From assembly GCF_003334255.1 (NCBI RefSeq), contig NZ_QOWU01000048.1: DNA of 43,440 bases. The stretch is one strand, 5' to 3'. Below are positions 17,475 to 43,440 of the stretch, in pieces. This stretch comes from Escherichia coli. GTDB taxonomy: Bacteria > Pseudomonadota > Gammaproteobacteria > Enterobacterales > Enterobacteriaceae. Within the stretch, counting starts at the first letter, position 1; each line of letters begins with the position of its first letter. Under the pieces are notes generated by a model. The model searched no databases. It saw only the letters and a program-made list of their open reading frames with translations, and was not told where the DNA came from. A program made the position numbers and the translations under genes.

Positions 17475-17580
17475 TTTCGGAAACGCCGGGGAGAAATAAA
17501 ATTTATTTTATTTCTTTCCGGGGTTGGACAACGAGCAAAGCGAGGCGTCAGTCAGGAGGCCGGTCAGACCAGCCTCCGGA
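17475..17580 (-). terminator. Hairpins downstream of traT, including copy 2 of the ~80 bp repeat
   Basis: GGAGGC-N11-GCCTCC hairpin (about 17556-17578) directly after the traT stop, then an AT-rich hairpin CCGGGGAGAAATAAAAT..ATTTTATTTCTTTCCGGGG with flanks shared with the 5495-5577 element. No clean U-tract, so terminator function is inferred. Confidence 0.4.
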
Positions 17581-39632: not shown

Positions 39633-40319
39633 TTACTTAACGCTATAAAATTCACGAATTATATTTAATAGCGAATCTATTTCCCCTTTATAGATACATG
39701 ACACTCTGAATAAATCAAAGTGTTCAAAAAATTCTTTTATTTTCCGTTTAACTGGTTTAATTCGATCCTCAGATGCTCTGTCTGTAATACCCAATTCTCT
39801 GGCAATTGTTGCATGACCAACACCCAGCATATAAAAAGAGAAAACAAGCAATGTCCCGGGGGAAAGATCATTCCATATCGTTAATTTGTCAGAAGTATTT
39901 GTATTACTTCCACTCTGATTTAACGCAAAAAATGGATAATCAGGAAACGGATTAATTTGCCATAAAACAACAGATTCGTCATTATAAAAAGAAACATTCT
40001 CCATCCTTATCTGATAGATTTCGCCATGAAAATTAAAACGACGACAAAATGCAGAGCCATGTCCAAGAGCCTGGCATTCCAGTTCAAGTGATGAAAGAAA
40101 AATTTCAACCTGCAGACGTATATAACTCTCTCCGGATAAGGGTTTATCTTCTCTGGAAAAGAGTTCAATAAAAGCCCCATTGGCATAAAGGATTTTCCGG
40201 TTTTTGTTACGGACACAAACCGGAACGGGAGAATTTCTGTAGATATTCTGAACGTTAAGGATGTATTTATTTACAGATTGACTGTTAAGTGGCCTTTCTC
40301 TACGATCCAGCGCACACAT
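39633..40319 (-). CDS. traJ: TraJ transcriptional activator of the tra operon, about 228 aa
   Basis: Start trimmed to the ATG at 40319 ([14 protein letters not shown]...), which has a GGAGG RBS at 5-nt spacing. C-terminal helix-turn-helix-like segment '[20 protein letters not shown]'. ORF-track start at 40379 runs into the finP/leader region. Confidence 0.8.
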
Positions 40320-40395
40320 AGGAACCTCCGTTAAGGATTCTATGGACAGTCGATGCAGGGAGGTCTGAACTCCCTGCATCGGCGATTTTCAGTTT
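40320..40395 (+). ncRNA. finP: FinP antisense RNA (approximate), complementary to the traJ leader
   Basis: Plus-strand perfect hairpin CGATGCAGGGAG-gtctgaa-CTCCCTGCATCG at about 40350-40381, followed by GCGATTTTC. Overlies the traJ RBS region on the opposite strand. Ends not mapped. Confidence 0.45.
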
Positions 40396-40509
40396 CAATT
40401 TTTAACGTGGCATTAACCACGTAATTAATATACTAATTATCTGACGTATTGTCATCTTTTTGAATCATAAAAATTCTTATATTTGAACCAACTCAAACTT
40501 CATTTTCAT

Positions 40510-40893
40510 TTATTCATCATCATTTTTTGGAAAAAACCGGTCCATCTCAACAGACACTTTCTCTCTGATATCGTCAACCATACTGGCATATTCAAACTTC
40601 GGGTTTCCGGAGACATGAGGACTGAGAGACTCAATACCTAAAATCTTTGCCACCGTTGACTGTGTTTTTACAACACATTCAAGAAGAAGTTTATTAAACT
40701 CTGTCTGGTTAAACGCAGACTCTTTACGCTCCATCTGTACATCATATACGCGAAGCCCCAATTCAAGAAGCATTGAAGCAGTTCCTGAAAGGCTTATATC
40801 TTTATCTCTTGCTCCCTCCTGACGACGCTTTTCAACAATCATGTTAATTTTTTCATGAACCTCATTACTGATATACAGATTTACTCTGGCCAT
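40510..40893 (-). CDS. traM: TraM relaxosome accessory/oriT-binding protein, 127 aa
   Basis: MARVNLYISNEVHEKINMIVEKRRQEGARDKDISLSGTASMLLELGLRV... closely matches F TraM. Confidence 0.9.
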   Translation of the reverse strand: MARVNLYISNEVHEKINMIVEKRRQEGARDKDISLSGTASMLLELGLRVYDVQMERKESAFNQTEFNKLLLECVVKTQSTVAKILGIESLSPHVSGNPKFEYASMVDDIREKVSVEMDRFFPKNDDE

Positions 40894-41307
40894 AAGACAG
40901 TACCTTTTATATTCTGAAATAAGTGTTTTATTTCATTTACTCATAGTTTGGTCTGAAAAAAGAAGAGCACCCCTAGCAGCGCCCCTAGGGTCATACTATA
41001 AAAAAACGCACGGCGCTGCTAGGGGCGGCCCTAATATATCCAAATGTTTTTCATAAAATTTGTCAGTACTGACCCTAACAAGGGTCGCCATAGGGTCGCC
41101 ATAGGGTCGTCAACGACCCTATTTAATAATGTAAAATAAATTAAAATACATTATTTAAAACATAAGCTAATGATTCAAAAAGCAAATCATCAAAAACTTG
41201 TTTTTGCGTGGGGTGTGGTGCTTTTGGTGGTGAGAACCACCAACCTGTTGAGCCTTTTTGTGGAGTGGGTTAAATTATTTACGGATAAAGTCACCAGAGG
41301 TGGAAAA
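40894..41307 (+). other. oriT: oriT (origin of transfer) with F-type nic sequence; nick predicted on the plus strand at about 41216/41217
   Basis: TTTGCGTGGGGTGT|GGTGCTTTTGGTGGTGAGAACCACCAACCTGTTGAGCC at about 41203-41250 matches the F nic region. Upstream lie inverted repeats (CCCCTAGCAGCGCC ... GGCGCTGCTAGGGG) and an AGGGTCGCCAT direct-repeat/palindrome cluster (41070-41121) between nic and traM. Confidence 0.8.
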
Positions 41308-41817
41308 ATGAAAAAATGGATGTTAGCCATCTGCCTGATGTTTATAAATGAGATCTGCCAGGCCACTGATTGCTTTGATCTTGCAGGCCGGGATTACAAA
41401 ATAGATCCTGATTTACTGAGAGCAATATCATGGAAAGAATCCCGTTACCGGGTTAATGCCATCGGTATTAATCCGGTAACGGGATATGGCAGCGGACTGA
41501 TGCAGGTAGATTCCCAGCATTTTAACGAACTGGCCCGCTACGGAATTAAGCCAGAACATCTGACAACAGATCCCTGCATGAACATTTATACCGGTGCTTA
41601 TTATCTGGCAATAGCATTTAAAAAATGGGGCGTCACCTGGGAGGCCGTTGGTGCATACAATGCAGGATTCAGGAAATCCGAACGCCAGAACCAGAGACGT
41701 CTTGCCTACGCATCAGAGGTTTACCGGATTTATACCGGGATAAAAAGCAGTAAAGGTATCCGGCTTCCGGCCACGAAGAAATCACTTCCGGAAATTAACA
41801 GCGTGCAGAATAATTAA
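41308..41817 (+). CDS. Gene X / orf169 lytic transglycosylase-like protein, 169 aa
   Basis: Start trimmed to [19 protein letters not shown] (signal peptide), giving exactly 169 aa. 'ISWKESRY', 'GLMQV' and 'AYNAG' are soluble lytic transglycosylase motifs. ORF-track start at 41170 would span the nic site and is rejected. Confidence 0.85.
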
Positions 41818-42061
41818 TCTTACAGACATTGTCAGATACCGGTTATGCCGCAAAAGCAGCATGGAAGGCCACACACAAAAATATCATATGAGTGACAATA
41901 CTGACTGGCCGAAGCCCCGCGAAGCGGGAACCCATCTTATATATACCCGGTAACTGCGCAGCCTCCTGCCAGACCATTTTTCGCGGGCACAATATTTACA
42001 GACAACCGGAAAGCCGGTCGATGAAATTGAGGTATATCAGACGACACAGCAATGCCGAAAA

Positions 42062-42115
42062 ATGATAATATAAGTAAAGCCCCGAAAATTTTTTCGGGGC
42101 TTTACTTATATTATC
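42062..42115. terminator. Long perfect palindrome (about 25-bp arms), probable bidirectional terminator between convergent gene X and orf273
   Basis: GATAATATAAGTAAAGCCCCGAAAA tt TTTTCGGGGCTTTACTTATATTATC. GC-rich core stem flanked by A/T runs on both strands. Confidence 0.6.
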
Positions 42116-42935
42116 ATGACTTCCACTTTCTGAACTGTTCGGCAATCACCCATAACGCCTTGTTGATTCTTATATCACCATCAATACCTGTAATGGCTCT
42201 TGTCCTGGTATTTTTCCCGGAGGCACTTCGCCCCGATAATCCACCTTTTATCATATTCTCCTGAACCCGCTGCCAGGTTGTCCAGAGATCGTTCTGTTTG
42301 TCTTCCCGACGACGGGGAGTAATTATCTGTTCAGGTGTCACTGGCGTTTTATTTTCATCTTCATACCTGACCATCAGTGCAGCTCTGCCAAATAAATGTT
42401 GCTCGTCACTGTTAAGATGAATTTCTTTCATCGCCTCCATATTATCAGTGACCTTATCAAAGACACCGAGCACTTCATACGCTCCCTCGATAACCTGCCC
42501 GACAATATCACCTTTATGTGGAACGCGGATTTCGCCAAAATTATTTCCGCACACCAGGCCATTTGTGCAGACAAAACGAAAAATTCCGGGGATCATCTGA
42601 TAACTGGATGAACCATCATGTGAATTAAGCAGGATAATTTCAGGAACTTCCTGTCCGTTAATATGCCCTTCCCTGCGAAGACGTAACATATGTTTACTGT
42701 ATTCGCGACGTCCCAAATCACGAACCCGACTCTGACAGGCAAAGAATGGCTGGAAACCTTCATCACGTAACTTATTGATGATATTGATTGTTGGAATATA
42801 CGTATAACGTTCACTCCGGGACTCATGTTTATCACCGGAAAATACCGAAGGCACGAACTGCATTAATTCATCATCCGTTAAAGGACGTTCACGGCGGATG
42901 GAATTATACCGACCAAAACGGGAAGCTAATCGCAT
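42114..42935 (-). CDS. DUF932-family leading-region protein (F orf273-like), 273 aa
   Basis: Start trimmed to MRLASRFGRYNSIRRERPLTDDELMQF..., giving 273 aa. Position is the first leading-region gene after gene X, as in F. Family assignment is from memory. Confidence 0.65.
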   Translation of the reverse strand: MRLASRFGRYNSIRRERPLTDDELMQFVPSVFSGDKHESRSERYTYIPTINIINKLRDEGFQPFFACQSRVRDLGRREYSKHMLRLRREGHINGQEVPEIILLNSHDGSSSYQMIPGIFRFVCTNGLVCGNNFGEIRVPHKGDIVGQVIEGAYEVLGVFDKVTDNMEAMKEIHLNSDEQHLFGRAALMVRYEDENKTPVTPEQIITPRRREDKQNDLWTTWQRVQENMIKGGLSGRSASGKNTRTRAITGIDGDIRINKALWVIAEQFRKWKS

Positions 42936-43055
42936 AACAGCTACTCCTTTATGAAAGAATAAATTTAATAAAAAATTTTTCCGCTTAATATCATCCCCCC
43001 CCCGATCTCCATTAACAAGATTGCAACAATCAGGAGAGATATTCATCACATCCGG

Positions 43056-43343
43056 TCAGCAGATCGCCCGGATATCGAGGCCGGCACGCTTAATCTGACG
43101 CAGGAACTGTTTGAAGTGATCGACTTCCGCAATGTTGATATGGCGGAACTGCTTATCCACACCCTGACTGAGCGCGTAGCTATAACTGAAGGCCATCTTT
43201 TCCGGGTGGCTTTTGCGATATTTTTTCAGCTCAGTCAGGCTGCTGAATTCCAGGACGTCCCACTCTTCCCCGGTGTTTTTTTTCTTCCCGGCAACAAGAA
43301 GCGTGTACGACGCGGTGTTAACGTGGATATTTCGGGTACTCAT
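43056..43343 (-). CDS. Leading-region hypothetical protein (F orf95-like), 95 aa
   Basis: 95-aa ORF directly after orf273, matching the size and position of F leading-region orf95. Confidence 0.55.
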   Translation of the reverse strand: MSTRNIHVNTASYTLLVAGKKKNTGEEWDVLEFSSLTELKKYRKSHPEKMAFSYSYALSQGVDKQFRHINIAEVDHFKQFLRQIKRAGLDIRAIC

Positions 43344-43440
43344 CCTGCTTTCTCCTCTCTCTGGTTTTCAGCCCCCATCATCTGTTGAGTTTCGGGAGCC
43401 GCGGTTTTGACGTTTTGCGGGGACCTGCTCTTTGTTCCCT

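Follow-up and report, generated by a model that had tools for sequence, protein, structure and literature searches.

A long perfect palindrome at the 3' end of the leading operon of an IncF plasmid as a probable bidirectional intrinsic terminator

The stem of an intrinsic terminator usually measures ~5 to 14 bp. At tI/sib of phage lambda, the terminator hairpin turns into a longer double-stranded RNA, and it does so only in read-through transcripts. Hairpins of plasmid leading regions have been described in other terms. Frpo and ssi elements are defined by homology, by -35 and -10 hexamers reconstituted in the stem, by a position upstream of genes templated by the transferred strand (T-strand), and by a very stable stem-loop (PMC11541004, PMC12672017); candidate single-stranded DNA (ssDNA) promoters have been nominated at folding energies below -75 kcal/mol (PMC12672017). 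In the F leading region, complementary-strand synthesis stalls at the ssp2 stem-loop until UvrD has resolved it; ssp3 causes no such stall (bioRxiv 10.64898/2026.01.09.698686). Frpo1 has been placed upstream of ygeB and ygeA, and deletion of ygeA strongly lowers conjugation; ygfA points the other way, and its expression requires prior conversion of single-stranded DNA to double-stranded DNA (Couturier et al., PMC9849209).

Here, we analyzed a palindrome that lies among these genes. The window, that is, the whole stretch of Escherichia coli DNA analyzed (43,440 nt), matches the IncF plasmid p1658/97 (NC_004998) in reverse orientation. The local order is traJ (minus strand), traM (minus strand), oriT, gene X, a 244-nt spacer, the palindrome, the DUF932 gene, and orf95. 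The features to which we refer are as follows:

41210 to 41230, plus strand: F oriT nick-site sequence, GGGGTGT followed by GGTGCTTTTGGTGG, an exact match
41308 to 41817, plus strand: gene X (F orf169/ygfA; SLT lytic transglycosylase), convergent with the DUF932 gene
41818 to 42061: noncoding spacer of 244 nt from the gene X stop to the palindrome, without a conserved open reading frame (ORF)
42062 to 42117: complete palindrome, with arms at 42062-42088 and 42091-42117, 27 nt each, 100% complementary, separated by a 2-nt gap
42062 to 42075: left outer arm, ATGATAATATAAGT, which on the plus strand is the A-rich 5' flank of the core
42076 to 42103: putative terminator core, AAAGCCCCGAAAA-TT-TTTTCGGGGCTTT, the inner 28 nt, with a predicted RNA hairpin of -18.2 kcal/mol on either strand
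42104 to 42117: right outer arm, ACTTATATTATCAT, a U-rich tract for plus-strand (gene X) transcripts, which also holds the DUF932 stop codon
42114 to 42935, minus strand: DUF932 gene (F orf273/ygeA), last gene of the Frpo1-driven leading operon
43056 to 43343, minus strand: orf95 (ygeB), first gene of the Frpo1-ygeB-ygeA operon

The RefSeq ORF of gene X is longer, with a start at 41215. We take the nick within the F oriT sequence to fall between 41216 and 41217; since it is on the plus strand, the plus strand is the transferred T-strand, and the palindrome lies 845 nt from the T-strand 5' end. A region homologous to Frpo1 begins at 43344, directly upstream of orf95, and continues past the end of the window. 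In F, the hok-orf95 interval is 89% identical to a paralogue upstream of ssb, and the two sequences fit Frpo1 and Frpo2, respectively. The F hok-orf95 region is 86% identical to the p1658/97 sequence upstream of orf95, and its overlap with the window comprises the last 97 nt. Together, the gene map and the position of Frpo1 place the palindrome at the 3' end of the Frpo1-ygeB-ygeA unit, downstream of the convergent gene X. A sequence-only reading had located it between gene X and the DUF932 gene. This holds on the gene X side, where the coding sequence ends at 41817, 244 nt upstream, but the DUF932 stop codon (TGA at 42114-42116, minus strand) and the third base of the last sense codon are inside the right arm.

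Several smaller features were noted around this junction. In RNA of the ygeA sense, a start codon overlaps the stop (UCAUGA; 42117-42106, minus strand) and opens a mini-ORF, AUG AUA AUA UAA, in the outer arm; the same arm contains tandem in-frame stops, UGA UAA. If gene X transcripts end at the palindrome, the spacer is the gene X 3' untranslated region (UTR). It contains small hairpins: ATGCCGC-AAAA-GCGGCAT, which directly follows the gene X coding sequence and in F is perfect, and CCCGCGAAGCGGG, which carries a GAAGCGG motif. A 57-aa ORF at 41892-42065, with its TGA in the left arm, was discarded as not conserved: pSLT-type plasmids have neither that stop nor the ORF. On the far side of oriT, FinP antisense RNA (plus strand, 91 bits) and the traJ 5' UTR (minus strand, 118 bits) both scored above the Rfam gathering threshold at 40313-40422, as expected for an F-like plasmid.

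In a repeat search over the 43.4-kb window, no other hairpin-type inverted repeat was as long as the palindrome, and none of similar size was perfect; the number of such repeats expected by chance in a random 43-kb sequence is 43440 x 4^-27, or ~2e-12. It had been described at first as having arms of ~25 bp and a 2-nt loop, at 42062-42115. The 2-nt gap is correct, but the arms are 27 nt long and the right end is at 42117. Upon folding, the sequence forms 26 bp closed by a 4-nt loop. The predicted RNA energies for the 101 nt around the palindrome were -42.9 (plus strand) and -48.9 (minus strand) kcal/mol, with z scores of about -11 and none of 200 shuffles as good; the corresponding DNA energies were -27.1 and -29.5 kcal/mol (z scores of -9.2 and -9.8), and again no shuffled sequence equaled them. 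The full stem alone is predicted at -38.4 kcal/mol as RNA of either strand.

The repeat can be divided into a core that combines GC-rich GCCCCG/CGGGGC with A/U pairs and an AT-rich extension of the stem by 14 bp on either side of it (ATGATAATATAAGT/ACTTATATTATCAT). A search of the 43-kb window allowing up to two mismatches found no copy of the ATGATAATATAAGT motif beyond the two arms of the palindrome. With no recurrence within the window, we ruled out that the outer arm is a dispersed repeat (REP/BIME-like) or a protein operator. An Rfam search of 40300-43440 at E values up to 1 returned only subthreshold, spurious hairpins at the palindrome (microRNA precursors and the His and PyrG leaders).

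Bidirectional termination, which the sequence-only reading had put forward, is the best-supported explanation of this element, given its structure, position, conservation, covariation, and positional analogues in IncFIIK plasmids. We consider it likely that the palindrome is a bidirectional intrinsic (Rho-independent) terminator that closes both the Frpo1-ygeB-ygeA operon and gene X. As would be expected of an intrinsic terminator, it forms a stable, GC-rich RNA hairpin, both as the core and as the full stem. It is located at the 3' ends of transcription units, starting at the DUF932 stop codon and lying downstream of the end of gene X. Both strands present an identical hairpin with its flank, at a point where gene X (plus strand) and the DUF932 gene (minus strand) converge. 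A terminator scan flagged the palindrome on the minus strand. The complement of the left outer arm provides a U-rich 3' tract for minus-strand transcripts, so that on both strands the core is followed by UUUACUUAUAUUAU, a tract that is U-rich yet interrupted (UUUACUUAU).

The sequence past the full stem is less constant. On the minus strand, it is UUUUU in the window, UUCUU in F-type plasmids, and CCUGC in R100-type plasmids; on the plus strand, no U run follows the full stem. Since the U5 sequence is not conserved, a conserved mechanism cannot rely on termination at the base of the full stem, and the conserved signal must be the core together with the U-rich proximal arm (UUUACUUAUAUUAU). Transcripts that end in this proximal arm would lack most of the 3' outer arm, and the full helix of 26 to 27 bp would form only in read-through RNA. 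The 14-bp extension is dispensable for a terminator. On present evidence, the palindrome is an ordinary kind of element with an unusually long, evolutionarily maintained stem.

In the model that we favor, two transcription units meet at this element. The first, Frpo1 (ssp1a) followed by ygeB (orf95) and ygeA (orf273/DUF932), would be transcribed on the minus strand with the incoming T-strand as a template; the second, gene X (ygfA/orf169), would be transcribed on the plus strand only once the complementary strand has been made. The termination signal would be the core hairpin followed by UUUACUUAUAUUAU, identical on both strands, and since the flanks are exactly complementary for 14 further bp, a transcript that continues through the outer arm would zip into a helix of 26 to 27 bp. 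We infer that leading-operon transcription would be stopped before it runs antisense through gene X into oriT, that gene X transcription would be stopped before it runs antisense into ygeA, and that both mRNAs would acquire a very stable 3' hairpin.

The core is not peculiar to F-like plasmids. An exact-match scan with the core pattern, meant to collect F-like variants and covering one genome per species, found it in at least 120 unrelated contigs, which among the matches listed were mostly from Bacteroidota and Firmicutes. We used the 121 non-F matches listed as a control for the extension: perfect pairing beyond the 12-nt core arms amounted to 0 to 3 nt in 91 of them, to at least 10 nt in 5, and to 14 nt in 1, and the median perfect extension among these same-core loci was 1 to 2 bp, which bears out the initial impression that the stem is far longer than that of a typical terminator. 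Given how widely the core is shared, it is generic, and the 14-bp AT-rich extension is the unusual part, rare although not unique. The locus with 14 further paired bases on each side (L078, 3806-3857; a metagenome-assembled genome [MAG] of Flavipsychrobacter stenotrophus) is an otherwise unrelated palindrome with the same core, which indicates that very long perfect terminator palindromes arise independently.

Within F itself, the other terminator-like sites of the 14.5-kb leading region have stems of 5 to 12 bp, and no second long palindrome was found in that region. We therefore rejected the notion that a long palindrome is a general mark of leading-operon ends, since the other such ends in F are short stemmed; it also follows that a long stem is not generally required by units driven from ssDNA promoters.

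The element is widespread. A 501-nt region around it had matches in 4,192 PLSDB plasmids from Escherichia, Klebsiella, Salmonella, and Shigella, of which 4,133 covered at least 80% of the query, and a 121-nt segment matched 4,526 PLSDB records. The same segment was present in 2,730 of 5,426 complete E. coli genomes, with 4,491 of 4,534 places on plasmids. In the 121-nt and 501-nt searches alike, two places per record reflect the palindrome matching on both strands. Absence of conservation in related plasmids, which had been named as evidence that would count against the element, is not what these searches show. A 30-kb contig labeled as a Lachnospiraceae MAG (L043, CAAGKF010000127.1) has the F-type palindrome with flanks identical to those of the window and is most likely a misbinned IncF plasmid contig. 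The extension has been kept across the F, R100, and pSLT-type lineages, and, among the plasmids compared, the long stem is specific to them.

To describe variation in the stem, we used PLSDB matches spread over the identity range and a second sample of 103 metagenome loci anchored in the DUF932 coding sequence, outside the palindrome. In the metagenome sample, the 23-nt arms were perfectly complementary in 87 loci; 10 loci had one mismatch, 4 had three mismatches, and 2 were rearranged. The lengths of the central A and T runs (42086-42093) differ between plasmids, at A3-6 and T4-6, and 101 loci showed 11 variants; such differences are typical of homopolymer slippage and alter the loop size while leaving the arms unchanged.

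Compensatory double substitutions were found at 5 of the 27 stem pairs, 4 of them in the extension. In pSLT-type plasmids, arm position 3 has changed from G-C to A-T and position 8 from T-A to C-G; position 7 has changed from A-T to C-G in L140, position 14 from T-A to C-G in L130, with the single-change intermediate present in L129 and L234, and position 18 from G-C to A-T in L181. Five pairs changed on both sides compare with 0.4 to 0.5 expected from 500 shuffles, none of which reached 5, and with 0 to 1 in slid controls. The pSLT-type plasmids retain the palindrome even though their DUF932 gene is a frameshifted pseudogene, and the change of its stop codon from TGA to TAA is paired with a matching change in the left arm.

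Covariation of this kind need not reflect selection. Template switching at replication can restore a DNA palindrome to perfection; this quasipalindrome correction, documented in E. coli as a route of mutation, requires no selection on RNA. Only the core might then matter, the outer 14 bp being a mutational by-product of template switching that perfects quasipalindromes, with symmetry and double changes unselected. The locus is mutationally active: deletions or rearrangements end inside the palindrome in three loci. In L007 (pUO-SeVR1, 1504-1540), the right arm breaks off after CTTTA and continues into sequence from within the DUF932 gene; L169 lacks the left arm and ~75 nt of the spacer, with the junction at the palindrome center; and in L171, the right arm is interrupted by a junction to unrelated DNA. 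The palindrome may be a breakpoint hotspot, and given these three broken loci and the known repair pathway, mutation, and not selection, may account for some of the double changes. The free variation of the central homopolymer points in the same direction, as does the persistence of plasmids with three outer-stem mismatches (the L002/L138 type, found in 6 loci and the most common divergent type). On the other hand, the arms are less polymorphic than the adjoining spacer in the metagenome set (sites variable in at least two loci, 3 of 46 in the arms versus 51 of 243 in the spacer; P = 0.02), the extension has been retained from F and R100 to the pSLT-type plasmids, and template switching leaves unexplained a tendency of tolerated single changes to form G·U pairs on one strand. 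On balance, we regard a by-product origin of the extension as unlikely.

The strand tendency can be read from uncompensated transitions, each of which turns a stem pair into G·U in RNA of one strand and into a C·A mismatch in the other. Of these events, 6 or 7 give G·U in the minus-strand (ygeA-sense) RNA, versus 2 in the plus-strand RNA, both singletons; all six events seen in more than one locus give G·U in the minus-strand RNA and C·A in the T-strand hairpin. Accordingly, 98.3% of the cells of the minus-strand alignment are paired versus 96.8% for the plus strand, and the L002 variant, with its three substitutions, folds at -37.6 kcal/mol as minus-strand RNA (-38.4 for the reference) and at -28.6 kcal/mol as plus-strand RNA. 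The wobble bias in the arms compared to the spacer was not significant, either for the whole metagenome set (7:3 versus 28:33; Fisher P = 0.19) or for variants in at least two loci (3:0 versus 14:18; P = 0.10). These comparisons are only suggestive of selection on the ygeA-sense RNA rather than on a hairpin in T-strand DNA. In the favored model, the minus-strand RNA would be the main selected form.

The sequence-only reading had also envisaged a cruciform, or a hairpin in the transferred single strand, acting in the manner of Frpo and ssi elements. This proposal found no support, as the palindrome failed on every defining Frpo/ssi feature that we tested. BLASTN with the Frpo1 region, which finds Frpo2 at 89% identity, matched the window only over its last 97 nt and gave no match at the palindrome. 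The stem contains no -35/-10 pair, and at 27 bp, it is too short for both hexamers and a 17-nt spacer. The sole promoter-like match agreed at 9 of 12 positions, a frequency expected by chance; its -35 element is outside the stem, and it points in the wrong direction for T-strand-templated transcription. Nor is the palindrome upstream of genes templated by the T-strand: it is at the DUF932 3' end, and the next gene, gene X, is in the opposite orientation. Finally, the predicted T-strand DNA fold of -27.1 kcal/mol is about one-third of the nomination threshold of -75 kcal/mol.

More broadly, a DNA-level element, whether a T-strand hairpin or a duplex cruciform, could be an ssi priming signal, an ssDNA promoter, or an ssp2-like roadblock that delays conversion of the oriT-proximal 0.85 kb and hence expression of gene X. 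The plus strand is indeed the T-strand, with the palindrome 845 nt from the nick, and the DNA hairpin is predicted to be stable (-27.1 kcal/mol; z = -9.2). The AT-rich center of the palindrome would favor cruciform extrusion. A stem-loop in the F leading region, ssp2, is known to stall complementary-strand synthesis (bioRxiv 10.64898/2026.01.09.698686), but large stem-loops are not always blocking, as ssp3 illustrates, and the hairpin of the palindrome is much weaker. Beyond the failures in position, homology, promoter hexamers, and energy, the variants that recur in at least two loci put C·A mismatches into the T-strand hairpin, IncFIIK plasmids have short, ordinary terminators instead, and there was no Rfam or other match above threshold. 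A DNA-level function is therefore, in our judgment, very unlikely.

If termination is achieved by the core, a role for the extension could lie in read-through RNA. The usual minimum substrate of E. coli RNase III is about two helical turns. By analogy with retroregulation at lambda sib/tI, transcripts stopped at the core would keep a short, stable hairpin, while read-through, for example on a single-stranded template where intrinsic termination may be weaker, would form a double-stranded RNA of 26 to 27 bp that is cut by RNase III; the cut would expose the ygeA/ygeB mRNA to 3' decay and help to make leading-gene expression transient. This would be an addition to the terminator model, not a replacement for it. 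The predicted read-through RNA does contain a perfect helix of 26 to 27 bp, terminator included, which exceeds both the ~20 bp of a sib-type read-through RNA and the two or so helical turns of an RNase III substrate; compensatory changes have kept the outer stem paired, and its variants are G·U compatible in the ygeA-sense RNA. Production of leading proteins is transient (PMC9849209), but this is already explained by inactivation of Frpo upon conversion to double-stranded DNA (PMC9849209; bioRxiv 10.64898/2026.01.09.698686), and the ordinary short terminators at the other F leading-operon ends indicate no general need for such control. We consider retroregulation unlikely.

It is also conceivable, but highly doubtful, that the extension is an adaptation to transcription on a single-stranded template, with the palindrome folding at the same time in template DNA and in nascent RNA, or that it serves an RNase III cut, or both; in either case, the Frpo1 transcript would end at a set point just short of gene X and oriT, and the ygeBA mRNA would be shorter lived. 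The incoming T-strand has no nontemplate strand to help displace the RNA, and the Frpo1 transcript serves as a primer as well.

Two other inverted repeats in the window were noted. A second long hairpin, at 41439-41485 in the gene X coding sequence, has 22-nt arms that are 91% complementary and a 3-nt loop. It is conserved in F, in pSLT-type plasmids, in M11 plasmid A, and in ~100 sampled loci and is absent from gene X of pKpQIL. Its two imperfections are G·T/G·U wobbles on the plus strand (the gene X mRNA sense and the T-strand) and A·C on the other strand, and in four loci it carries a compensatory swap from GTTAC/GTAAC to GTAAC/GTTAC, which changes Tyr to Asn on the left and is synonymous on the right; this hairpin could be a T-strand or mRNA structure. 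In the tra region, an inverted repeat at 17482-17525 has 21-nt arms that are 86% complementary, with a 2-nt gap (AACGCCGGGGAGAAATAAAAT/ATTTTATTTCTTTCCGGGGTT).

The palindrome is part of the first kilobase that enters the recipient in F-type conjugation, and about half of sequenced E. coli carry it. It separates the Frpo1-ygeB-ygeA unit, at the junction of the first two genes, from gene X and oriT and probably insulates both from leading-region transcription; its reading as a terminator, and not as a promoter or a priming signal, would help to define the leading-region transcription units, and it would offer a very compact natural insulator that works in both directions. Should the long stem prove to govern the fate of the mRNA or the point at which ssDNA-templated transcription ends, the timing of early plasmid gene expression would gain a further layer. 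We did not find a description of the palindrome in the literature searched on orf169/orf273 and on ssi near oriT; the original papers on the F leading region (Loh et al. 1989; Manwaring et al. 1999) may mention it.

Among known systems, the palindrome has little in common with Frpo, ssi, and ssp elements (F Frpo1, Frpo2, and ssp2; ColIb-P9 ssi1 to ssi3) apart from the leading-region setting, the T-strand, and a possible ssDNA hairpin: these elements span hundreds of nucleotides and lie upstream of genes, whereas the palindrome is ~56 nt long and lies at the 3' end of genes. It is unrelated in sequence to lambda tI/sib, which it resembles in predicted architecture alone, although its nested core and extension would permit the same logic. 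With the bidirectional intrinsic terminators of convergent genes, it shares a GC-rich hairpin, mutually complementary A-rich 5' and U-rich 3' tracts, and a location between convergent stops; it differs from ordinary ones in its stem of 26 to 27 bp, its interrupted U tract, and its overlap with a stop codon. The palindrome is thus a widely distributed addition to a known kind of element. The IncFIIK plasmid pKpQIL-IT, whose DUF932 protein is 72% identical, offers the nearest counterpart in gene order, with oriT, a convergent gene X, and leading genes, and with a DUF5983 gene in place of the 244-nt spacer of F-type plasmids. It has an ordinary terminator (AAGCGCCGGGCAG/CTGTCCGGCGTTTT) 5 nt past the DUF932 stop and an ordinary bidirectional terminator of 9 to 12 bp at the convergent junction with gene X. 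These terminators are unrelated in sequence to the palindrome and have stems of 9 to 13 bp and clean T runs, yet they occupy equivalent sites, which indicates that the termination function is conserved by position.
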